DNA of 64,000 nucleotides from Nitrospiria bacterium (GCA_035498035.1 DATKAN010000043.1:23639-87638); one strand, 5' to 3'. Shown: positions 1 through 45,053, numbered from the stretch's first letter. Notes: a model not told the origin generated them from the sequence alone. Made by a program: numbers and translations.

Positions 1-184
1 CATAATAGAACATTAGAAAGATCCCCGTCGTCGCCTGCATGATAAAGATAAAAAGGAGGGCGGAGCCGAAGGCGTAGGCATAGCTTGAACCGCCCGGCAT
101 CGGCTCGTTGAGCATCTTGGCCTGGAGCAGCTTCAGATCGATCCGCTCATCGATCCAGTTGTAGATGGTTTGAAATAACGACAT
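1..184 (-). CDS. cytochrome b, N-terminal fragment (gene continues beyond window start)
   Basis: Minus-strand reading from the ATG near 184 gives MSLFQTIYNWIDERIDLKLLQAKMLNEPMPGGSSYAYAFGSALLFIFIMQATTGIFLMFYY, which matches the conserved cytochrome b/b6 N-terminus. It sits about 18 nt downstream of the Rieske gene stop. Absent from the ORF track because it is truncated. Confidence 0.6.
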   Translation of the reverse strand, partial: MSLFQTIYNWIDERIDLKLLQAKMLNEPMPGGSSYAYAFGSALLFIFIMQATTGIFLMFYY

Positions 185-201
185 CGGGATTCAAAATCCA
201 T

Positions 202-1164
202 TCAGATGATGCGAATCTGGTGATCCTTGCCGGCCTTGAACTCGGCGTCGATGACCTCGATATCCCCCGTTCCGGTGAGACGCATCGGGAGCACATCCAG
301 CCGCCGGGGGGCCGGTCCGTCCAGCACCTTTCCGCCCACGTCATAGATGCTCAGATGGCAGGGGCACCAAAACACTTTTCCGAAGCGCTTGTGGTTCTCC
401 TTCCATTTGTAGGCGCAGCCCAGATGGGGACACTTGCCGGAGTAGACGACGACCGGTTGGTCCGGGTTATCCACCCAGTAAACCTTTCCGCTCTCGTCTT
501 TGTACTCCATCGGCTTTCCGTGAAAAATCTCTTTCCTCACGTCGTCCGACATTCGAACCACCCAGTTCGCCTTCTCGAATGTCCGTTCAAGATACCCTTC
601 CTTGACCGTCTTCTTGAACCTGACCTGCTTGGGCTTGTCGATTTCCGTAACCTGACTAATATTGCCGATCTTGAGCCAGGCGTTATTGTAGCCCGGAAAC
701 ATCGGAAAGGTGAGATACCGGAGAACGGGATAAACCAGCGGCAGGGCCAGAACGACGCCGATGGCGTTCGTAAATTTCGTGAAAAAAGCCCGGCGGGTCA
801 AATCCCGTTCAAGCGTCGGTACCGGCACGAGCGCCTCTCCCGGAAACACCTCCAGGTGCCGCTCAAGCCCGGCGATCTCGACCTCCTTCACTTGTTGGTA
901 GAGTCCCCGCTCCAGCGCCGGGTACTGACCCATATTGGAGGATGGGAATTCTAACTGGACCAATCCGTCCGTGATCACCGCGTGGCCATCGACCGGGACG
1001 ACGCGTTCCATGCCGTCCGACTGCACGACGACGTGGCTGATCACCTTGGCGATGGGATCGATGATGACCCGCGACACCTCGCCGACTTCGCGATCGCTGC
1101 ACCGGACCTTGGATTTGATCTTAATCGTCATAGGAGATCGAACGGCCTCACGGTTGTTTGACAA
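202..1164 (-). CDS. Rieske [2Fe-2S] iron-sulfur protein with N-terminal PRC-barrel-like domain and one TM helix
   Basis: C-terminal half carries Rieske box I CPHLGC and box II CPCHLS about 18 residues apart. N-terminal ~100 aa (IKIKSKVRCSDREVGEVSRVIIDPIAKVISHVVVQSDG...) resemble a PRC-barrel, followed by a hydrophobic helix (AIGVVLALPLVYPVL). Start is ambiguous: TTG at 1164 overlaps the upstream cytochrome c gene; ATG near 1131 is an alternative. Confidence 0.75.
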   Translation of the reverse strand: MSNNREAVRSPMTIKIKSKVRCSDREVGEVSRVIIDPIAKVISHVVVQSDGMERVVPVDGHAVITDGLVQLEFPSSNMGQYPALERGLYQQVKEVEIAGLERHLEVFPGEALVPVPTLERDLTRRAFFTKFTNAIGVVLALPLVYPVLRYLTFPMFPGYNNAWLKIGNISQVTEIDKPKQVRFKKTVKEGYLERTFEKANWVVRMSDDVRKEIFHGKPMEYKDESGKVYWVDNPDQPVVVYSGKCPHLGCAYKWKENHKRFGKVFWCPCHLSIYDVGGKVLDGPAPRRLDVLPMRLTGTGDIEVIDAEFKAGKDHQIRII

Positions 1165-2032
1165 TCGGCTTCGGGGTGTTGACGCTCGTATTTTTCAGCG
1201 TGGACAGGTAGGTCGCCAGCGCGGTCAGTTCTTCTTCCGAAATAAGTTCCGTGTAATTTTTCGGCATGAGGCCCTTTTCGTACTCCTTCTCGAATCCGTC
1301 CGCCATCATGTATTTCGGATTGTAAACCTTCTTTTTGATCTGGTCGATCGTGGCCAGGTTCCCGATGTTGTCGAGCATCGGCCCGCGCTTTTTGACGCTG
1401 CCCCTACCGCCGATCTTGTGACAGTTATAACATTCATAGAGTTCGTAAACCTCTTTTCCATAGGCGACCGGATCCGACGGAGGAGCGCCCGAACTCGCCG
1501 CCCTCTTTTTGGCCAACTCTTCAGCCGTGGGCCCTTCGCCCGCAGTGCTCTGGCCGGTCATGGACTCCTCCAGCTTGGCCAAACGCTCCATGAGATCATT
1601 GGTTTTGGCCGACAGGGCTTCGGTCTGCTTGAGAACTTCCTGGGGTCTGATATCCGGATGGGACCGCTTTTTGGCCTCGATGATCATGGCGATCTTGCCC
1701 TTCTCCCACTCGGGATCGAACTGGGGCAGTTGTGTCCCGGCCCCGACATAGATCGCCGAACATATGACATAGAAGGCGAGGATCGCGATGAGGGCCTTGC
1801 CGCCCGAGAGGTCCGGCATCGGCGGGAGATCCAGAAGAAGGAAGACGACAAAACCCAGGACCGCATACATAACAAACATGATGCGGAAGACGGTGGGAAA
1901 GGCCAGCGCACCGCTCACAAACCAAAGTGCCAAGCCGATCACCGTGCAGACGATCAGCTTCCATTTAACGATGTCAAAGAAGCTCTTCTGGCCCTTCATA
2001 ACCTCTCCTTCATGCATCCGTTTCATTTCCAT
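1148..2032 (-). CDS. membrane-anchored monoheme c-type cytochrome
   Basis: About three N-terminal hydrophobic helices, a charged coiled-coil-like linker, and a single CYNCH heme-binding motif in the C-terminal domain. Confidence 0.7.
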   Translation of the reverse strand: MEMKRMHEGEVMKGQKSFFDIVKWKLIVCTVIGLALWFVSGALAFPTVFRIMFVMYAVLGFVVFLLLDLPPMPDLSGGKALIAILAFYVICSAIYVGAGTQLPQFDPEWEKGKIAMIIEAKKRSHPDIRPQEVLKQTEALSAKTNDLMERLAKLEESMTGQSTAGEGPTAEELAKKRAASSGAPPSDPVAYGKEVYELYECYNCHKIGGRGSVKKRGPMLDNIGNLATIDQIKKKVYNPKYMMADGFEKEYEKGLMPKNYTELISEEELTALATYLSTLKNTSVNTPKPIVKQP

Positions 2033-2044
2033 CGCCGGATCCGC

Positions 2045-3553
2045 TCACGATTCCTTGGTTTTTCCCATCCGAAGACTGAGCCAGATCGCGAGACTGACGA
2101 TCGCGAAGAAAGCGATGGTCATCGCCGTGATCATCACGCTGGCGTGAGCGAGCGTGGGCGTGTAGGACTCGGGGGAGTAATCCGGAAACAGAATGTAGAC
2201 ATGGAAATATTTTCGCACCAGGGAACGCACGGCGCCCATCAGGCCCATCGTCCAGATCGCCGAAAAGGCCAGGAAGATCAAAACGAACTGGGAGGCGAAG
2301 TCGATCTTGCCCCACTGAATCGTGCCGCGCTTGATGGCCCGGTTGTAGATGATGTAGTTGATGATCGTTATCGCCACGATCAGGGCCGCGGCCGTGCTCT
2401 TCGCGGGCATCAGCGCCAGGAATCCCCAATCCGAGGGCAGCTCCAGCGCGTCAGTCGCGGTCGCCTGGGTCGCGGAGAAGCCGTGCGGGGTCATCCAGAT
2501 GGCGTTCCCGAGCAGGATGATCGCAAAGCCGGATTTCACCATGACGGAGTTGGGGATTCCGAGGAACTTCATCGTTTCGATGCCCGAGATGCGCTTCATC
2601 GATTGCCAAATGTACAGATTGCTGGCCGTGAAGATCAGTCCGACCATGGCCCCCTGCATCTCGAAATACATCGAGAGCTGGTCGGCCATCATGTACGGCC
2701 CGATCGAGGCGTCGAACTCGAAGAATTCGGCCGCGAGAATATAACCTGCCAGCGGGAGAAGAAGAAGGGCCCCCACGCCGATCAAATTCCCCACAAAGCC
2801 CATCCAGTCATAATAAGCCTTCTCCTCCGGCGTCTTGGCAAACATGTACATGTAGGCCGCGATCAATCCGGTGATGAATCCGCCGAAGGTCACGTTCCCG
2901 ATCGTCCGGTGAAGATTTAACGGCATCCAGCTGTAGTTGTAGACCGAATCCCAGAGGGTGGCGGTCTCGATGGGATGGGGCGGTGTGTTCATGAACGAAG
3001 TCGGGGCGTTGATCACGACGAGGGTGGTCAGTCCGATGATGTTCAGCAGCACCCCGATCGCAACGTGACGGCCTTTTTTCGGCCCCATGAGTTTGTCCCA
3101 GGTATACCAGTAAAGGTAGAGCACCAAGGTCTCGGCGATGAACAGGAGCGGATAGATGATCGCAAAGATGGGGAAGAAATGGCTCACCAGAAAACTGGTC
3201 AGGTTGGGATAAAGACCGATCAGAAACAGAATGAACAGCCCCCCCGTCAACGCCGTCATGCTGTACAGGATCGTGGTGACCTTGGTCACTTCCTTGGCCA
3301 GCCGGTCGTATCGGGGATCGTTTTTACGCATCCCGATCCATTCCGAGATCACGACGAAGATCGGAGCCCCGAGAATAAAGGCCGCGAAAAGGATGTGCAT
3401 CTGCGCCGCAATCCAGACCAGCCCCCGGTTCTCGATCCCCGGGATCGAATAGCCCTCCGGTTCCGGCACCTGAGCATGGCCCGCTCCGGCCATCAGACCC
3501 AGGCCGATCAGACCGAGGAGAATCGCAAGGAGGGTCAAGCGCCGGCGTTTCAT
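2045..3553 (-). CDS. cytochrome bd oxidase subunit I-like polytopic membrane protein (bd-like oxidase)
   Basis: 502-aa multi-helix membrane protein whose N-terminal region resembles CydA. No cydB-like gene is adjacent. Its ATG overlaps the stop of the upstream cytochrome c gene (ATGA). Confidence 0.6.
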   Translation of the reverse strand: MKRRRLTLLAILLGLIGLGLMAGAGHAQVPEPEGYSIPGIENRGLVWIAAQMHILFAAFILGAPIFVVISEWIGMRKNDPRYDRLAKEVTKVTTILYSMTALTGGLFILFLIGLYPNLTSFLVSHFFPIFAIIYPLLFIAETLVLYLYWYTWDKLMGPKKGRHVAIGVLLNIIGLTTLVVINAPTSFMNTPPHPIETATLWDSVYNYSWMPLNLHRTIGNVTFGGFITGLIAAYMYMFAKTPEEKAYYDWMGFVGNLIGVGALLLLPLAGYILAAEFFEFDASIGPYMMADQLSMYFEMQGAMVGLIFTASNLYIWQSMKRISGIETMKFLGIPNSVMVKSGFAIILLGNAIWMTPHGFSATQATATDALELPSDWGFLALMPAKSTAAALIVAITIINYIIYNRAIKRGTIQWGKIDFASQFVLIFLAFSAIWTMGLMGAVRSLVRKYFHVYILFPDYSPESYTPTLAHASVMITAMTIAFFAIVSLAIWLSLRMGKTKES

Positions 3554-4020
3554 TTAGGTGCTCCGGCTGGCGGCGTGTATTCGTGAACGGCGGGTTGGCC
3601 TCCGTGTGAAAAGGTGTTTTCGAAGGCCATGACCTTCCAGCGGTCCTCTTCCGAAAGCTTTTCCTTCCAGGCCTTCATCTTGGTGTTCGGCACTCCTTCC
3701 GAAATTCTCCAGAACCAGAAACTATCCGAAAAATATTTCATATTCTCGGCCTGACGGAAGTCGCGGGCGCCTCGTTTAACCGGCTTCCCGTCTTTTCCGT
3801 GACAGCTGGAGCAGTTGACGTCGATATTCGCCTCGCCCATGAATATTTTTTTCCCTTCATCGACGATTTTCGGATCCACCCACCATCCCTCCGGCATATG
3901 CTTATTGGCGTATTCCGCCGGAACCGGAGGGAATTCGAGAGGATTCTCCCCGCCCCCGCTGCACGCCGTCATGAACGCTATGATACCGATTCCGCCCAAT
4001 ATCGATGACCATCTTTTCAT
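3550..4020 (-). CDS. c-type cytochrome, exported (probable lipoprotein)
   Basis: Signal peptide MKRWSSILGGIGIIAFMTAC and a CSSCH heme motif. AAGGAG-like SD upstream of the ATG near 4020; the ORF is open to 4083 but those extra codons are unlikely to be translated. Confidence 0.7.
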   Translation of the reverse strand: MKRWSSILGGIGIIAFMTACSGGGENPLEFPPVPAEYANKHMPEGWWVDPKIVDEGKKIFMGEANIDVNCSSCHGKDGKPVKRGARDFRQAENMKYFSDSFWFWRISEGVPNTKMKAWKEKLSEEDRWKVMAFENTFSHGGQPAVHEYTPPAGAPK

Positions 4021-4363
4021 ATTCAACTTTCGCTCCTTTCTTTTCGATTGCAAGGGCTCGCAGCGCCCCTCTCCGTAGCCCACCCTTCCGAGCGACTCGA
4101 CTGAACCCGCCGGGAAGATCTTCGTACAGCCTTGTTGTCACGACTCATAAAAAAACGCCTCCACCCGCATCACTCATGGGAGAAAGCGTCATGGTACGTA
4201 TCAAAATCAAATATCGCTCGTTCCTCCGCGCCCTCAACTTGAGACCCAACCGTCCTTTCAAATCGGAGGGCTTCGCCGTGAGGAAAAAATCTTCACGCGC
4301 CCACCCCCTCCGAGCGTGCGCAGGCAAAGCCCGATGCGCTTCTACTCCTTACTTTCGAAACTC

Positions 4364-4867
4364 CTACGGTGCGGGAGTCTTTCGCCGTCGGGACCGCCTC
4401 CAAAAAACAAAGACGATGGTCACGCCCGCGGCCAGGACCGCTCCGGCCAGCACCGACATCCCGTTTCCCGAAAATCCGGGAAGGCCGCCTCCCGGCGCCC
4501 CAAAATCGATACGGCCCTTCCGAACGGTGACTTTATCGTTCGGGTCGAACGCGGCCCGGATTGTTTTCCGCTGTTCCAGGGCGGTCACGATAATCTCATC
4601 GCCCAGGTCGGCATTGTGGAGATGCAACAGCGCTTCAAACCCGCCGTTCCGATCGGTGAAGACCGTCATTCCTTCATCCAAGCGGGGGTCGACCACGATG
4701 ACCTTGGTATCCGCTACGGGACGGCCCCGATCATCGTAAACCGCACCGTAAACCGTAAAACGGTGGTCGACCTCATGCGTGGCAAAGGCCGAGGAGGACG
4801 AGACGATGAACAAGATCGGCCATGCCCTCCATCCCCCATTCCATCGACGGAACAAACCTCCGAACAT
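4364..4867 (-). CDS. hypothetical exported protein with C-terminal membrane anchor
   Basis: ORF with signal-peptide-like N-terminus, a C-terminal hydrophobic helix and a basic tail (WRRSRRRK). Same strand as and 4 nt from the CBS gene. No recognisable catalytic motif. Confidence 0.35.
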   Translation of the reverse strand: MFGGLFRRWNGGWRAWPILFIVSSSSAFATHEVDHRFTVYGAVYDDRGRPVADTKVIVVDPRLDEGMTVFTDRNGGFEALLHLHNADLGDEIIVTALEQRKTIRAAFDPNDKVTVRKGRIDFGAPGGGLPGFSGNGMSVLAGAVLAAGVTIVFVFWRRSRRRKTPAP

Positions 4868-4870
4868 CCC

Positions 4871-5266
4871 TCAAGATCCCGGCGCTTCCTCGCGGCTGTA
4901 AAACGGCCTCAGCAGATCGCGCATCGAGATCATCCCGACCACCTTTCCGTCCTGAGTCACGGCCAGATGACGAATCCCGTTCTCGACCATCTGCCGCCCG
5001 GCTACCTCGAGTTCGGCGTCCGCCTCGATGCTCATGAGGGGAAAACTCATCACCGCGTCCACGGTGGTGATCTGCGGACTTAACCCCTGAGCCACAACCT
5101 TGTGAACGATGTCCGTTTCGGTAATGATCCCCAAGATCTCATCCGACTCCTTGACCAGAAGGCTGCCCACGCCGTTCTTTTTCATTAAATCCGCTGTCTC
5201 TTTGATCTTGGTTTTTTTTGAGATGGTGAACACACTCTTGGCCATCATGTCCTTAACCCTGACCAT
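4871..5266 (-). CDS. CBS domain-containing protein
   Basis: 131 aa with two CBS-like repeats (GVGSLLVKESDEILGIITETDIV and IRHLAVTQDGKVVGMISMRDLL). Confidence 0.7.
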   Translation of the reverse strand: MVRVKDMMAKSVFTISKKTKIKETADLMKKNGVGSLLVKESDEILGIITETDIVHKVVAQGLSPQITTVDAVMSFPLMSIEADAELEVAGRQMVENGIRHLAVTQDGKVVGMISMRDLLRPFYSREEAPGS

Positions 5267-5417
5267 AAATGCGATACGCCTCTTTTCGGAAGCGGTCCTT
5301 CTCGGAAGAAATACCGTGGAAGGCGTAATCTACAAACTTGAGGGTCGTATTGTTAACATAAAATATGGGACTTGTCAAATATTTTTTACGGTCATTTTTC
5401 GTGGTCCCGGGGCTTAC

Positions 5418-8004: not shown

Positions 8005-8080
8005 TGGTGGAGCTGGCCGGGATTGAACCGGCGACCTTCTGATTGCGAACCAGACGCTCTCCCAACTGAGCTACAGCCCC
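8005..8080 (-). tRNA. tRNA-Ala (anticodon CGC)
   Basis: Minus-strand sequence GGGGCTGTAGCTCAGTTGGGAGAGCGTCTGGTTCGCAATCAGAAGGTCGCCGGTTCAATCCCGGCCAGCTCCACCA folds as a cloverleaf with G3:U70 in the acceptor stem (the Ala identity element), anticodon loop TTCGCAA, and an encoded CCA. Confidence 0.9.
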
Positions 8081-11814: not shown

Positions 11815-13227
11815 CTACACCTTTTCTGAGGTCTTGTCTGCCTCATTTGCGGCAAGGATTCCGGGTTTTTTAATTCCGTGCTTTTCCAAACGGTATTGCA
11901 AGGTTTTATAGGTCAGCCCCAGTAGTTTAGCCGCTTTCATGATAATCCAGTCGGATTGCTCCATGGCCTTAAAAATCAATTCACGCTCAAGCTCATCCAG
12001 GGAGATACCTTCAGCGGGCAACTGCAGTCCGAGTCCCGTCATCGGGGACGGCAGCCGGCAGATTTCCGGAGGAAGATCGGCGACGTCGATCACCTCCTGG
12101 CCGCAAAAAAGAACCGCCCGTTCAATGGAGGACTCCAATTGACGAACATTTCCAGGCCACGAATACTCGAGCAGCTTTCGCATGGCCTCACGACTTACGC
12201 CTTGGACCGGCCTTTCCGTTTTTTGGCTGTAGATCCGGATGAAATGCTGTACCAACTCCGGGATATCCGTGCTGCGCTCACGCAACGGAGGAATTTGAAT
12301 CGAAATGACATTCAACCGGTAATAGAGGTCTTCACGGAACAGATCCTTCTTGATCTCCTGATCCAGGCGCTTGTTGGTGGCCGCAATGACACGGACGTCG
12401 ATGGCCGTCTCTTCGGATCCTCCGATCCGCCGGATCTGTCGTTCCTGAAGCGTGCGAAGCAACTTGCCCTGAAGATGAAGACTGAGATCGCCTACCTCGT
12501 CCAGAAAAAGGGTTCCGCCATCGGCCGCCTCGAATAGCCCGATTCGTCGGCCCGCCGCCCCCGTAAATGCACCCTTTTCGTAACCGAACAATTCGCTTTC
12601 GATCAGCGTATCGGGAATGGCGGCGCAATTAATCGCCTGAAAGGGTTTATTCTTCCTCGCGCTATTGAAATGAATGGCACGGGCCAAGAGTTCCTTTCCC
12701 GTACCGGACTCCCCGTTGATCAGGACGGTCGCGGTGCTGTTCGATATTTTCTTAACCACATCAAAAACTTCCTGCATCCGGGGATGATTTCCTATTATGT
12801 TATTTATATGAAATTTTTCTTGAAGTTGTTGTCGGAGCCGGCTGTTTTCTTTTATGAGAGAGATCTTTTCAAAGGCCCGTTTTACCGCGATCAGCAGTTC
12901 TTCCCGCTCCAGCGGTTTGGTGATGTAATCCAATGCCCCCAGCTTCATCGCCTCGACCGCCGAATCAATCGAACCGTGGGCCGTCATGATGATTACGGAC
13001 GCGGACGGGTTCAACTGAAAAATCTTTTGAACGATCCCTAAGCCCTCCGTATCCGGCAGCTTCAGATCCGTCAGGACCACATCATATTCCCCGTTTTGGA
13101 ATTTACCCACCGCCTCCTTTGCGGTCGAGGCAAGATCCACTTCATATTTTTCAGACCGGAGAATGAGCCCCATAATTTCACGCTGGGACCGCTCATCATC
13201 AATCACAAGGATATTGCCCGGCTTCAC
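11815..13227 (-). CDS. sigma-54-dependent response regulator (NtrC family)
   Basis: Receiver domain (ILVIDDE...DVVLTDLKLPD), AAA+ sigma-54 activator domain (GESGTGKE, GAFTGA, ESELFGYEKGAFTGA) and C-terminal HTH. Probable GTG start at ~13227 overlaps the kinase stop (GTGA); the ORF is open to 13296. Confidence 0.85.
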   Translation of the reverse strand: MKPGNILVIDDERSQREIMGLILRSEKYEVDLASTAKEAVGKFQNGEYDVVLTDLKLPDTEGLGIVQKIFQLNPSASVIIMTAHGSIDSAVEAMKLGALDYITKPLEREELLIAVKRAFEKISLIKENSRLRQQLQEKFHINNIIGNHPRMQEVFDVVKKISNSTATVLINGESGTGKELLARAIHFNSARKNKPFQAINCAAIPDTLIESELFGYEKGAFTGAAGRRIGLFEAADGGTLFLDEVGDLSLHLQGKLLRTLQERQIRRIGGSEETAIDVRVIAATNKRLDQEIKKDLFREDLYYRLNVISIQIPPLRERSTDIPELVQHFIRIYSQKTERPVQGVSREAMRKLLEYSWPGNVRQLESSIERAVLFCGQEVIDVADLPPEICRLPSPMTGLGLQLPAEGISLDELERELIFKAMEQSDWIIMKAAKLLGLTYKTLQYRLEKHGIKKPGILAANEADKTSEKV

Positions 13228-14696
13228 GCATGTACTCCTTCCATGGGAAGGGATATGGTGACGGTCGTTCCCATCCCCTTCACGCTGGCGACCCAAATGG
13301 TTCCGCCATGCTCTTCCAAAACCCGTTTTGTCAACGCCAGTCCCAGTCCGATGCCGAGTTTCTTGGTCGTAAAATAGGGTTCGAAGATCTTTTGAAGGTG
13401 GTCCGCTTCGATGCCGCAGCCGGTATCTTCAAAATGCACCAGGACTCGGCTGTTCTCGTCGTCCATTTGTGCATGAATCCGCAACACCCCCCCCTGGCTC
13501 ATGGCCTGAAGCGCATTGACCGTGATGTTCACAAAACAGTTTTTGATCTGTTCCACATCGACCAACACCCGCGGAAGATCGCGAATGCCCCGAGTCTCAA
13601 ATTGAACCCCTTGATCCGCTCCCTTGGGGAGGGCCAATTGGAGGACATCGGACAAAATGGCGGCCAAATCGGCCGATTGCATCTGCAGGCGAATCGGTTT
13701 CCCAAAATCAAGAAAATTTTCGATCATTCGGTTCAGCCGATGAATTTCGGTCTTGATGTTGACGACCAGTTTGTCGATTTCTTCCTTATCAATAAAACGA
13801 GCCCGATCCAACTGGACGCGCAAATGATCGATGGAGAGGTTGATCAGATTCAAGGGATTGCGGATTTCATGGGCGATCCCGGAAGCCAATTGGCCGACGG
13901 CCGAGAGATGTTCCGCATGGCGCAGGCGGCCTTCGAGGGATTTCTGCAGCCGGAGCTTTTCCACCATTTCATTGAAGCTTCGGGTCAGCTCGCCGATCTC
14001 CTCTCCGCCCCCCTGTACGACCAACGGAGTGCTCAAATCGCCGGCCGCAACGTTTTTGGCCGCTTCCACAACCTGTTTGATGGGACGGGTGTATCGCCAC
14101 GCCAGATAGAACGAGAGGAAGATCCCCATCGAGAATATCGCGATATGCACGGCCAGACGTGTATAGAAGCTTCGCCGGATCAGGCGGTTAAAATCATCCA
14201 TGATCATGATGATATGGACATAACCCAACTGCTCCCCACCGACAACGATCGGGACCAAAATGTTATAGGGCTTCTGGTCTTTTTTCGTTCCGGCGTCCTC
14301 TCCGATCCGTTCTGTAATGATCAGATCGCGATGCTTGGGATCCGGAGATCGCTCTTTCCGATGAGGATTTGAACTGGCGATGACTTGATTTTCGTTGCTC
14401 AGAATGGAAATTTCCTTTACCCCTTTCTTATTGAGCCGCTTGACGTAATCTCTCAAACGGGCCTCGTCCGTGGCCCCGTGCGTCGTCAGCTGTTCGACGC
14501 TGATCTGGATCGCCGTCGTCAGGTCCTCCGTGTCGGCCATGATTTCTCTGACGACCGCTTGCTCGGTCAGCCAGTAGAAGGCCAAGGAGGCCATCAAGGA
14601 TAACAACAAAAGCGAGAGCATCATGAGGAGAAGCTTGGTATTGAGCCGGAGATGCTCCAAGCGATTGGAGATAGTTCTCAATGCGGATCTTACCAT
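13224..14696 (-). CDS. sensor histidine kinase (periplasmic sensor, HAMP, HisKA, HATPase)
   Basis: Two TM helices flanking a ~130-aa periplasmic region, HAMP, H-box (SGIAHEIRNPLN), and N/G boxes (DTGCGIE, GLGLAL). Confidence 0.85.
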   Translation of the reverse strand: MVRSALRTISNRLEHLRLNTKLLLMMLSLLLLSLMASLAFYWLTEQAVVREIMADTEDLTTAIQISVEQLTTHGATDEARLRDYVKRLNKKGVKEISILSNENQVIASSNPHRKERSPDPKHRDLIITERIGEDAGTKKDQKPYNILVPIVVGGEQLGYVHIIMIMDDFNRLIRRSFYTRLAVHIAIFSMGIFLSFYLAWRYTRPIKQVVEAAKNVAAGDLSTPLVVQGGGEEIGELTRSFNEMVEKLRLQKSLEGRLRHAEHLSAVGQLASGIAHEIRNPLNLINLSIDHLRVQLDRARFIDKEEIDKLVVNIKTEIHRLNRMIENFLDFGKPIRLQMQSADLAAILSDVLQLALPKGADQGVQFETRGIRDLPRVLVDVEQIKNCFVNITVNALQAMSQGGVLRIHAQMDDENSRVLVHFEDTGCGIEADHLQKIFEPYFTTKKLGIGLGLALTKRVLEEHGGTIWVASVKGMGTTVTISLPMEGVHA

Positions 14697-38967: not shown

Positions 38968-41025
38968 TCAGAATCGAACGGTGAATCCGCCCATGAAATT
39001 CCGTTCCGGTGAGGGGTTGAATCCGATTCGGCTCCCGAACGGAAAGCCTCCAACTCCTCCGAAATCATCATACTTCCGGTTAAGGATATTGTTAACCCCG
39101 AAAAATGCCTCGGCGGATTTAAATCGATAGCTAAGTTTAGCATCAACGACGATGTATTCGGGAAGTTTTTCCTGCTGATTCGCCAGGTCATTGGCCAAAT
39201 ACCGTGATCCGACGAATCGACCCGTCGCGGAAAGAAGCGGCCCCTTATCTTTCCCCCAATCCGCCGAAACACTTCCGGCATGTTTCGGGGTGATGGGAAG
39301 GTGACTCCCTTCGAACGGACCCTGCTGTATCCTGGTTCGGGTGATCGTGTAGCTCCCCTTGATGCGAAGGGTCGAAGATGGCCGGACCGACGCCGAGGCC
39401 TCGATCCCCTCGTGTCGAACTTCGGGAACATTCTCGTTTTCGCCGAACGCCGCTGCGCCGAGCGCCGGAGGCACAAAGAGGATTTCATTTTTAACATCGG
39501 TCCGAAAAATGGAAAGCGTTCCTTCGAAGACCGATCCGGCCTGGAACTTTTCCCCCGCCTCATAGGTGGTCGCCTGCTCCGGATCGAGTGCCGGTGTCAG
39601 GCCGAAAATGCCGGTCAGTTCGTCCCGATTGGGAAAGCGGAAATTCCGGGACCATGTTGCGAACAGACTCGTGGAGGGTGTTGTCAGATACATCAGCCCG
39701 ATCATGGGGCTGAAGACACGAAACGACCGATTCCCGGAAGAGTCGGTCGTTGAATTCGTCGTCAAGTCCGTCGTCGCCTGTGAATACGTAAACCGGGACC
39801 AATCCATGCGGCCGGTCATGTTAAGGGTCAGCGCGGATAATATCGGGAGTTCCTCGCTCGCATAGGCCCCGATCAACCGGCGCGTGTAATCCGTTTTTTC
39901 GAGATTGACGAACGGGAATGCGGGATCGGGATAATTGTTCGCGCTCTGGGCATGGATCTCCTCCTTGAGGAGATCGGTTCCCGCCAGGAAACGATTTTCC
40001 CGTCCGGCGAGCCGTCCGGTGATACGGTATTTTCCGGCCAAGGACACGGATCGGCTGTCGTCGCTCAGATCGGTCGAACCCGAATTCGGAACGGTCGTCA
40101 GCGATCCGTCTCCGCGAAGGGTCTGGCCGGTCGAAAATTCGATCCAGTGATTGGGATCCAGGTACGAATCAAACGAGAGGTCGAGCCGACCTTGATGGAC
40201 ACCCGCGTTATCCAGGGGGGTCACCGATCCTCGCCGGCCGACCGCGTCGATTTCGTCCTGGGTGAGGCTGCCCGGAAGCAAATAATCGTTGCTGAGGTAC
40301 CCGGACTGCAGATGGAGCGTCGAAAAATCACTGACTTTGTAATTGAAATTTCCGATGTAATTGGAGGCCCGGTAGTCGCTGTGCTCCCGGTAACCGTCGC
40401 TTGTATCAAAGCCCCCGTACAGGTAATATCCCAAGGCTCCCGACGTTTGAGAAATGGCCGCCTTGCGTTTCCAATAATCATAACTGCCTCGCTCGAGGGA
40501 AAGATCCGTATAGGGCTCACGGGCCCCGGACTTGGTGATGATGTTGATGACGCCTGCGATGGCGTTATCCCCATAGAGCGACGTGGCCGGGCCGCGGGCG
40601 ATCTCGATCCGATCAATCGCCTCGACCGGGATCGCGGCCCAGTCCGGATTGCTCGTGTCGACCGCATTGGCCCGACGGCCGTCGATCAGAACCAGCACCC
40701 GGCTGCCGTTGCCGCCCCCGTCGTTGAATCCACGGCCGTCGATCATGATTCCGGATGGCGTGGAGCCGCTGGTGTTGGTGACCCAGAGACCGGCCTCCGT
40801 TCGGAGCAGGTCCCCGGCATTCGTCGCGTTCGTCCGTCGGATGTCCTCCGATGTGATCACCGTAACATGGGACGGAACATCAAGGACGTGCTCTTCCTGC
40901 CGTGTGGCCGTGACCACGACCGGCCCCAATTCCATGGGTCCTCCTTCATTCTGAGCCAAAACGATTGAACCGGTTCCAAATAATAATACCGCCAATATTC
41001 CTGCGAAAACAAACTTCATCCGCAC
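38968..41025 (-). CDS. btuB: TonB-dependent outer-membrane receptor (BtuB-like cobalamin receptor)
   Basis: Signal peptide, TonB-box/plug domain (VVTATR, DGRR), beta-barrel, C-terminal aromatic residue (RF); sits in a riboswitch-led B12 operon. Confidence 0.85.
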   Translation of the reverse strand: MRMKFVFAGILAVLLFGTGSIVLAQNEGGPMELGPVVVTATRQEEHVLDVPSHVTVITSEDIRRTNATNAGDLLRTEAGLWVTNTSGSTPSGIMIDGRGFNDGGGNGSRVLVLIDGRRANAVDTSNPDWAAIPVEAIDRIEIARGPATSLYGDNAIAGVINIITKSGAREPYTDLSLERGSYDYWKRKAAISQTSGALGYYLYGGFDTSDGYREHSDYRASNYIGNFNYKVSDFSTLHLQSGYLSNDYLLPGSLTQDEIDAVGRRGSVTPLDNAGVHQGRLDLSFDSYLDPNHWIEFSTGQTLRGDGSLTTVPNSGSTDLSDDSRSVSLAGKYRITGRLAGRENRFLAGTDLLKEEIHAQSANNYPDPAFPFVNLEKTDYTRRLIGAYASEELPILSALTLNMTGRMDWSRFTYSQATTDLTTNSTTDSSGNRSFRVFSPMIGLMYLTTPSTSLFATWSRNFRFPNRDELTGIFGLTPALDPEQATTYEAGEKFQAGSVFEGTLSIFRTDVKNEILFVPPALGAAAFGENENVPEVRHEGIEASASVRPSSTLRIKGSYTITRTRIQQGPFEGSHLPITPKHAGSVSADWGKDKGPLLSATGRFVGSRYLANDLANQQEKLPEYIVVDAKLSYRFKSAEAFFGVNNILNRKYDDFGGVGGFPFGSRIGFNPSPERNFMGGFTVRF

Positions 41026-44590: not shown

Positions 44591-44864
44591 AAAGCTCCAG
44601 ATGCCCCCTCCGGGGACTTCCACATTTCGTATTACTGGAAGGGGGCCGCGAGGCCGCAGGGACCGAGGAGCCCGGAGCGTAAGGCAATAGGTACGTGAGG
44701 ACACCGAGGGACGGAGAACAAAGCAGATGGACTTTTTCAGCAGTTTGCAAGAGGGCATAAAAAATCCCCAAAGGCAAAACACCCAGCCCTTGAGGATTGC
44801 ACCCTGCTTCTTCACCCTAAGGTGAGCCGATCCGCCTTCTTCAATCGAAACGGAATAGGCCGCG

Positions 44865-45005
44865 CATTCAGGCAGGTCTTCTGGCTTGTGGATCGTCCTC
44901 CACCCGCGTCTTCCCGTCGTCCGACAGTGACTTTATTGCGGGCTTCGTCCCCACTCACAGCGGCGGGACCGCCCCCGATTCTAACGGGGTTCCCTTGGCC
45001 TGAAT
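44865..45005 (-). promoter_or_regulatory. cobalamin (adenosylcobalamin) riboswitch
   Basis: Minus strand reads ...AAGGGAACCCCGTTAGAATCGGGGGCGGTCCCGCCGCTGTGAGTGGGGACGAAGCCCGC...GTCACTGTCGGACGACGGGAAGACG...AAGCCAGAAGACCTGCC: conserved GGGAA / GGTxAGAATCC / GCGGTCCCGCC core plus a 3' B12-box-like element, upstream of the btuF operon. Confidence 0.8.
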
Positions 45006-45053
45006 GTGTTATGTGGGCTTATCTATACCAGACCATGAAACGGTTTGTCAACT

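Follow-up and report, generated by a model that had tools for sequence, protein, structure and literature searches.

We analyzed a window of 64,000 nucleotides (nt) from a Nitrospiria bacterium (GCA_035498035.1 DATKAN010000043.1:23639-87638) and, within it, a run of respiratory genes on the minus strand at positions 1-4083. We consider it probable that these genes are the promoter-proximal half of a conserved 11-gene cluster whose products form a supercomplex of complex III and a terminal oxidase. The predicted products of the genes in the window are a quinol-cytochrome c oxidoreductase of the b6f-like Rieske/cytochrome b type, which includes a PRC-barrel Rieske protein and a cytochrome c that has three transmembrane (TM) helices, and also a CydA paralog of the OR-N1 type, which bears heme ligands and is without the quinol loop, together with a lipoprotein cytochrome c. 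The cluster itself is already known, conserved, and published; what is new is that it is found in an uncultured Nitrospiria lineage with small structural differences. An earlier reading of the window made from its sequence alone (hereafter the sequence-only reading) had described a non-canonical complex III/terminal-oxidase-like module of the kind to which the bd-like proteins of Nitrospira belong, and this description agrees with all of the evidence given below and with the literature.

Domains were assigned with Pfam and NCBIfam. The minus strand of 1-4083 contains four complete open reading frames (ORFs) and the start of a fifth (Table 1). An ORF search found them where the sequence-only reading had placed them, and profile searches agreed with the identities it had given, namely, cytochromes c, a CydA-like protein, a Rieske protein, and cytochrome b. 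The Pfam matches were Cytochrome_CBB3 (6.4e-8) and Cytochrom_C (2.5e-6) for the first cytochrome c, Cytochrom_C (2.7e-10) for the 3-TM cytochrome c, and Cytochrome_B (4.6e-5) for the 61 codons of cytochrome b at 2-184. The motifs CSSCH, CYNCH, CPHLGC/CPCH, and PEWY and the three TM peaks are all present, PEWY being on the full-length gene. The 3-TM cytochrome c has its three TM helices at the N-terminus and its cytochrome c domain at the C-terminus, with a charged linker between them. The first cytochrome c had been read as an exported protein of 177 amino acids (aa) but it starts at ATG 4020, which makes it a 156-aa lipoprotein whose signal peptide carries the lipobox FMTAC. The claim that the genes are translationally coupled holds for one junction, where the stop/start overlap ATGA at 3550-3553 joins the lipoprotein cytochrome c and OR-N1. 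The other two junctions that had been claimed, a 12-nt gap at 2032-2045 and a 17-nt overlap at 1148-1164, came from the longest-ORF starts, 2032 and 1164, and these were rejected because gene calls on identical contigs favor 1999 and 1131. The starts at 1999 and 1131 were preferred because of these gene calls, because an AGGAG ribosome-binding site precedes ATG 1999, and because the Rieske start at 1131 matches the conserved N-terminus MxxKIK. With these starts the gap between OR-N1 and the 3-TM cytochrome c is 45 nt and that between the 3-TM cytochrome c and the Rieske gene is 16 nt.

The exact 502-aa OR-N1 protein is recorded on ten metagenome contigs and the longest of these, ENA ERZ27256607 k141_3059863 (151.6 kb; L001 in Table 1), was taken as the reference for the continuation of the cluster. 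Over 13.5 kb it matches the window with 99.96% identity, and it extends past window position 1. On this contig cytochrome b is complete and is a 358-aa protein of the fused b6 plus subunit-IV type (Pfam Cytochrome_B 4.1e-53 and Cytochrom_B_C 3.8e-10), with the histidine pairs H89/H103 and H190/H205 (14-residue spacing, b6-like) and PEWY at 277. With the genes that follow cytochrome b the full cluster has 11 genes, of which the window carries the first half. Thus, the five-gene operon of the sequence-only reading was an effect of the window edge, and the bd-like subunit is not the orphan it was thought to be, there being a paralogous bd-like gene five genes downstream. The sequence-only reading was correct that no cydB is present; past the window edge come the remainder of cytochrome b, then a small membrane protein and the second bd-like paralog, and when the downstream proteins were scanned one by one no cydB (PF02322) was found in the 21.5 kb around the OR-N1 gene on the identical contig. 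An ordinary cydAB pair just past the window was therefore rejected because the identical contig has no cydB within 10 kb.

Scanning one genome of each species gave 440 relatives, and the best 80 loci were compared by tblastn with the cluster proteins; the counts given here cover species-level Nitrospirales loci with enough flank. Conservation of the 11-gene cluster spans the order Nitrospirales. In 57 of 57 loci the order of the five window genes is unchanged, in 55 of 55 OR-N2, the second bd-like gene, comes after cytochrome b, and 43 of 49 have all ten larger genes in order. The pet-gene neighborhood, which is the Rieske and fused cytochrome b6/subunit IV genes two genes downstream of OR-N1, also holds in every locus (57/57). 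Among the conserved loci are those of Nitrospira moscoviensis NSP M-1 (NZ_CP011801.1 689881-711485), an N. defluvii metagenome-assembled genome (MAG), and other Nitrospira, while the closest genomes are uncultured 'Nitrospirae/Nitrospiria bacterium' MAGs (73-84%). Relative to the Nitrospira orthologs, the Rieske protein is about 50% identical, cytochrome b about 66%, and the 584-aa protein about 74%.

The N. moscoviensis region has been published as CIII_1, bd-like_1, bd-like_2 (putative complex IV), and alt_NxrC_1; it is uniformly highly transcribed and a complex III-IV supercomplex has been proposed for it (Mundinger et al. 2019, PMC6606698). This region and its N. defluvii equivalent, which includes NIDE0901, have all ten larger genes in the same order as here (loci L074 and L061), with protein identities of 45-75% to this cluster, and they have in common with it the PRC-barrel Rieske fusion, the fused cytochrome b, and both bd-like paralogs. 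The differences are that OR-N1 is 502 aa here and about 570 aa in Nitrospira, being without a ~52-residue segment of two TM helices and also missing a 9-12-residue periplasmic insert, and that the spacing from cytochrome b to OR-N2 is ~0.4 kb here, with one 122-aa gene, versus ~1.1 kb in Nitrospira. Nitrospira also appears to have a gap where the ATGA overlap stands here, although this comes from the ends of partial tblastn alignments and not from called starts. The host here is of an uncultured Nitrospiria lineage, unlike the cultured N. moscoviensis. The 122-aa protein is weakly similar (27% identity, E = 9e-7) to the C-terminal portion of an ORF of 323 aa that N. moscoviensis has in this position.

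It could be argued that the juxtaposition of these genes has no functional meaning, because they are chance neighbors or because the CydA-like gene is a degenerate remnant. Only spacing supports co-transcription here and no promoter was identified: a sigma-70 scan found no minus-strand promoter-like site in 1348-5326, which includes the 343-nt stretch upstream of the first gene. A scan for terminators found no minus-strand terminator-like site within 1-4083, the nearest one being at 4427-4411 inside the upstream ORF. However, the order of the genes is identical in all 57 species-level loci although the proteins are only ~60% identical, no other membrane protein of the five is as conserved as OR-N1, and the whole region is expressed highly and uniformly in N. 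moscoviensis (PMC6606698). Conservation effectively refutes this explanation and we give it almost no weight.

The 502-aa protein belongs to the CydA superfamily, as both profile and fold show. It matches PF01654 (Cyt_bd_oxida_I) at 5e-20 with 71.9 bits against a cut-off of 26.2, over profile positions 8-238 of 418 only, and among structures in the PDB it matches 5doq_A (1.6e-14) over TM1-4 only. The AlphaFold2 (AF2) model of the protein, of moderate confidence (pLDDT 67), has a signal peptide and about 11 TM helices, and the top 10 Foldseek matches of this model are all CydA chains with a probability of 1.00 and TM-scores of 0.4-0.57, while CydB chains rank far below. The significant CydA homology that the sequence-only reading had claimed is therefore borne out by Pfam, PDB, and Foldseek. 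A chance or degenerate similarity to CydA was rejected on the same matches and on the very high conservation of OR-N1, which has a mean column identity of 74-75% and more than 150 invariant columns.

In the CydA alignment His53 falls on His21 of the Geobacillus thermodenitrificans enzyme, which is His19 in E. coli and is the ligand of the active-site heme, and it is invariant in 54 orthologs and in OR-N2. Glu141, which aligns with CydA Glu108/107, and His163, the equivalent of CydA His126, are also invariant. His215 in an NLHR motif is the equivalent of the heme b558 ligand His186, as mapped through Table S6 of Murali et al., and it too is invariant. The published position of Met393, a heme b558 ligand, falls near residue 340 where there is no conserved Met, although other Met residues are invariant. 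Tyr134 is invariant and stands in place of CydA Glu101/99. The Q-loop with the quinol-binding site between TM6 and TM7 is absent from OR-N1: the Pfam alignment ends at profile position 238 of 418, the PDB alignment ends after TM4, and at the place of the Q-loop the model has only short helices at residues 266-290. The signal peptide is predicted to be cleavable. With these residues and this degree of conservation, OR-N1 is a strongly constrained protein and in all likelihood bears cofactors.

These are the features of the OR-N family, which is without a quinol site and in which the first four helices are retained; in it, OR-N1 is "typically found with petA/petB/petD", OR-N2 operons contain several cytochromes c and an ebdC homolog, and OR-N1 and OR-N2, with up to 40% similarity, can share an operon (Murali, Gennis & Hemp 2021, bioRxiv 10.1101/2021.01.16.426971). 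The same holds here, in that one bd-like gene is by pet homologs and the other by cytochromes c and an ebdC homolog, with ~40% identity between them, and in that there is no Q-loop, the equivalents of His19, His186, and His126 are kept, and Tyr replaces Glu99. The residues H53, Y134, H163, H215, Y148, Y150, T177, T185, and G105 are all invariant or nearly so and correspond to the published OR-N1 reference signature H52 / Y133 / H162 / H222 / Y147 / Y149 / T176 / T184 / G104. The protein has 59-62% identity to the syntenic OR-N1 genes of Nitrospira versus 39% to its OR-N2 paralog. Judged by its pet neighbors, residue signature, and orthology, the 502-aa protein is the OR-N1 member of the pair. 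It departs from Table S6 of Murali et al. in two respects: OR-N1 is given 14 TM helices there, whereas 12 in all, including the signal peptide, are predicted here, and the Glu107 position is Gly there, whereas here it is Glu141, which is invariant in every OR-N1 ortholog aligned. The ~52-residue two-helix segment of the 572-aa Nitrospira orthologs is missing in this lineage, where the proteins are 502-507 aa long, and because of this absence the segment seems to be dispensable for the role of the protein. The place of the missing segment is after residue 330 (window about 2530-2560, minus strand), and the segment is present in all of the 562-584-aa Nitrospira orthologs.

Compared with the canonical CydAB(X) oxidases (E. 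coli 6RKO and G. thermodenitrificans 5DOQ), OR-N1 has the same subunit I fold, a homologous TM1-4, and the equivalents of the heme-ligand histidines. In contrast to them, there is no CydB or CydX here, no Q-loop or quinol site, and Tyr instead of Glu99, and OR-N1 has additional helices at its C-terminus as well as a cleavable signal peptide and is associated with genes for c-type cytochromes and for Rieske/cytochrome b.

OR-N1 and OR-N2 are paralogs that are 39% identical over 438 residues (E = 2e-98), OR-N2 carrying two extra helices near its C-terminus. In a joint alignment of 15 OR-N1 and 14 OR-N2 sequences, five histidines (H53, H163, H215, H357, and H451) and five methionines (M251, M289, M382, M436, and M439) are invariant in both paralogs. 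H125 is invariant only in OR-N1, and H258, H378, and H379 are invariant only in OR-N2. The latter three are presumably the copper-ligand candidates proposed for NIDE0901.

The lipoprotein cytochrome c upstream of OR-N1 is similar to the heme domain of the 3-TM cytochrome c that comes after OR-N2 (32% identity, E = 3e-10), and this paralogy suggests that the two bd-like subunits each draw on a donor cytochrome c of their own, the two donors being related. It also hints at an ancient duplication of a module made of a cytochrome c and a bd-like protein. The 283-aa 3-TM cytochrome c of the window was considered as a paralog of the 3-TM cytochrome c after OR-N2 and rejected because there is no similarity. 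Since the 283-aa protein is not paralogous to any cytochrome of the OR-N2 module, it is likely to serve the Rieske/cytochrome b complex as its cytochrome c subunit.

The main rival explanation is that OR-N1 is the CydB-equivalent partner (CydA') of OR-N2 in one heterodimeric terminal oxidase, an OR-N-type CydAA', and that the Rieske/cytochrome b genes merely lie between the two. Canonical bd oxidases are pseudo-symmetric heterodimers of homologous subunits and there is no cydB here; the two paralogs, at 39% identity, are in the same cluster in 55 of 55 loci; and duplicated CydA paralogs usually co-assemble and always keep His19 (Murali et al., bioRxiv 10.1101/2021.01.16.426971). A 2025 comparative study states this explanation, in that it proposes the NIDE0901-like OR-N2 together with OR-N1 as a CydAA'-type terminal oxidase of most Nitrospirales (PMC12342949). 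However, five genes lie between the paralogs, and OR-N1 overlaps its own cytochrome c gene translationally and abuts the bc genes. Murali et al. name OR-N1/OR-N2 as a possible exception and note that OR-N2 is often without another CydA-like gene (bioRxiv 10.1101/2021.01.16.426971), and only one bd-like subunit is encoded in the TO_1 cluster of Manganitrophus (Yu et al., bioRxiv 10.1101/2021.11.15.468770). Moreover, OR-N1 is not degenerate, having the five shared invariant histidines as well as its own His125 at the mean column identity given above, and each paralog has a related cytochrome c of its own. We regard the heterodimer as possible, if on the unlikely side.

The Rieske protein has the CxHxGC and CxCH boxes, here CPHLGC and CPCH in a domain that is predicted to be periplasmic, and a twin-arginine translocation (Tat) signal and anchor, with the Tat motif RRAFF at residues 113-117 and the TM anchor at about 111-141. 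Its residues 1-105 are a PRC barrel, so that the PRC-barrel::Rieske fusion of the sequence-only reading stands. The PRC match (PF05239) of the window protein itself, with E = 0.07, is below the Pfam threshold, but 18 of the 22 orthologous N-terminal domains match PRC, the best at 3e-5, and phmmer with the 105-residue domain reaches proteins that pass the Pfam PRC threshold, at 1e-8 to 1e-12. The AF2 model of the Rieske protein (pLDDT 85.8) has a six-stranded beta domain at residues 8-60. Because it is placed before the RRAFF motif and the TM anchor, the PRC barrel is predicted to stay in the cytoplasm. The ~120 close homologs listed are all full length, at 288-323 aa and nearly all at 309-318 aa. 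Of the 50%-identity cluster representatives listed as matching the domain, no more than two, of 312 and 302 aa, reach full fusion length, and Pfam confirmed both as Rieske plus PRC; several of the shorter top phmmer matches may be fragments of the same fusion. Our literature search found no paper on a fusion of a PRC barrel and a Rieske protein.

The mechanism that we propose for the supercomplex is as follows. All 11 genes would be on one transcript and their products would assemble into the complex III-terminal oxidase supercomplex. Quinol would be oxidized at the Qo site of cytochrome b, and electrons would pass from the Rieske cluster to the membrane-anchored cytochrome c and on to the lipoprotein cytochrome c, which would hand them to the hemes of OR-N1. 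OR-N1 would thus serve the bc module as its acceptor arm. Electrons from periplasmic donors would be taken up by OR-N2 together with its own cytochromes and the NxrC-like heme-b subunit. The bc module could also work in the reverse direction in lithotrophic organisms whose donors are of high potential.

Several points weigh against this proposal. Co-transcription in this organism is inferred from spacing alone, and the model of OR-N1 is, as noted, only moderately confident. OR-N1 is without H258, H378, and H379 of OR-N2, and it does not have the canonical heme d/b595 environment either. Tyr134 replaces Glu99, and the Glu445 position in OR-N1 is Ser/Ala/Glu according to Table S6 of Murali et al. 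(bioRxiv 10.1101/2021.01.16.426971); because of these two changes the canonical heme d/b595 site for the reduction of O2 is not intact. Finally, the literature search found no biochemical or structural study of any OR-N protein, which is in keeping with the statement in the sequence-only reading that bd-like oxidases are biochemically uncharacterized.

The altered residues raise the question whether OR-N1 is an oxygen reductase at all. It might instead be a heme conduit in the membrane, an enzyme for another acceptor or donor, such as reactive nitrogen or oxygen species, or a support for reverse electron flow that leads from cytochrome c to the bc complex and the quinone pool. The changes at Glu99 and Glu445 and the absence from OR-N1 of the histidines specific to OR-N2, the presumed copper ligands of NIDE0901, are what would be expected if this were so. 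It has been argued that in reverse electron transport bd-like proteins without the Q-loop might behave in the manner of an alternative complex III (Lücker et al. 2013, PMC3578206), and the role of bd-like_1 has been called 'yet unknown' (Mundinger et al., PMC6606698). On the other hand, the equivalent of His19, the ligand of the active-site heme, is invariant, and the same is true of Glu141 and His163 in the proton channel. According to the preprint by Murali et al., all OR-N families have in common the first four helices, where the oxygen-reduction site is located, and TM1-4 is the only part of the 502-aa protein that aligns to the canonical CydA sequence. In addition, the adjacent cytochrome b already supplies the quinone chemistry. 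A role for OR-N1 other than oxygen reduction is therefore, in our estimate, unlikely.

A further proposal is that the five genes by themselves encode a self-contained quinol:O2 oxidoreductase, a 'bc-bd' hybrid, in which two c-type cytochromes would link the b6f-like Rieske/cytochrome b complex firmly to OR-N1. OR-N1 would contain only heme and no copper and would reduce O2 at a non-canonical site, with Tyr in place of Glu99, and the cytoplasmic PRC barrel would be a handle for assembly or regulation. Murali et al. hint at such a hybrid (bioRxiv 10.1101/2021.01.16.426971). We hold this proposal to be doubtful; if it is true, the hybrid would be distinct both from the heme-copper supercomplexes and from CydAB.

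Other known systems resemble parts of the supercomplex proposed here. Related clusters, TO_1 to TO_4, have been described in Manganitrophaceae (Yu et al., bioRxiv 10.1101/2021.11.15.468770). TO_1 of Candidatus Manganitrophus, with one bd-like subunit, two cytochromes c, and a periplasmic cytochrome b, is like the downstream half of the cluster, but as described it has no complex III genes attached, unlike the cluster here. In TO_4 bd-like proteins are joined to a canonical complex III, as here, but these are two clade-V bd-like proteins and not an OR-N1/OR-N2 pair. In the obligate III2-IV2 supercomplexes of actinobacteria and others (bcc-aa3), Rieske/cytochrome b is wired via an anchored cytochrome c to the oxidase, and the genes are clustered. 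The oxidase of bcc-aa3 is a heme-copper enzyme, whereas here it would be a protein of the bd superfamily in a putative association.

Table 1. Genes and other features of the cluster in the window and on the reference contig L001
Feature	Position	Strand	Basis
Lipoprotein monoheme cytochrome c, 156 aa, CSSCH, lipobox FMTAC	3550..4020	-	ORF, gene call on identical contigs, Pfam, motifs
bd-like oxidase subunit, OR-N1 type, 502 aa	2045..3553	-	Pfam PF01654, PDB match, AF2/Foldseek, invariant residues, synteny
Membrane-anchored monoheme cytochrome c, 283 aa, CYNCH	1148..1999	-	Pfam Cytochrom_C, TM peaks, ribosome-binding site, gene call
Rieske iron-sulfur subunit, 309 aa	202..1131	-	PRC-barrel, Tat RRAFF, TM anchor, Rieske domain
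PRC-barrel domain of Rieske protein, residues 1-105	817..1131	-	
Cytochrome b, first 61 codons, cut at window edge	1..184	-	Translation, Pfam Cytochrome_B
Non-coding stretch, 343 nt, presumed promoter region of first gene	4021..4363	-	Sequence, promoter/terminator scan
1st after cytochrome b: single-TM Lys/Glu-rich protein, 122 aa	L001 14463-14831	same as cluster	
2nd after cytochrome b: second Cyt_bd_oxida_I protein (OR-N2), 584 aa	L001 14839-16593	same as cluster	
3rd after cytochrome b: diheme cytochrome c, N-terminal anchor, 251 aa	L001	same as cluster	
4th after cytochrome b: 3-TM monoheme cytochrome c, 241 aa	L001 17415-18140	same as cluster	
5th after cytochrome b: EB_dh/DOMON protein, NxrC/EbdC-like periplasmic heme-b subunit, 273 aa	L001	same as cluster	
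6th after cytochrome b: diheme lipoprotein cytochrome c, 280 aa	L001	same as cluster	

Upstream of the cluster by 343 nt and on the same strand is an ORF at 4364-4867 (149-167 aa) with a signal-like segment at its N-terminus, a TM helix in its C-terminal part, and a tail rich in Arg; it has no Pfam match on record, and in a 91%-identical relative (L005/L006) a different ORF on the opposite strand is called at this position. About 8 kb upstream of the cluster, at 11815-14696 on the minus strand, are a HAMP/HisKA sensor kinase and a sigma-54-dependent response regulator. In Rfam and Pfam surveys the remaining window was seen to consist of housekeeping genes (purine synthesis, PPDK, and glyS) and a cobalamin riboswitch; they found no NXR, heme-copper oxidase, or cydAB in the rest of the window and no hint of the energy source. 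The riboswitch (Rfam RF00174, 102 bits) is at 44854-45018 on the minus strand, upstream of a run of minus-strand ORFs, one of which is a TonB-dependent receptor (Pfam) at 38968-41025, and this region is probably a locus for B12 uptake. There is a single tRNA gene at 8008-8080 on the minus strand (Rfam RF00005, 68 bits).

The terminal oxidase of Nitrospira, the most widespread nitrite oxidizer, is known only from genome inference and this cluster is the leading candidate locus for it. What the window adds is a conserved PRC barrel that is predicted to be cytoplasmic, an OR-N1 without two helices, and an invariant set of histidines particular to each paralog. The role of the bd-like proteins is an important question, for which the window is no more tractable than the genomes of cultured Nitrospira. 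The whole arrangement extends to an uncultured sister lineage at ~60% protein identity and this helps to define its essentials, namely, the five histidines and five methionines that are shared, the two-helix segment that appears dispensable, the conserved PRC barrel, and the paired cytochromes c. These features are concrete targets for work on the respiratory chain of Nitrospira.

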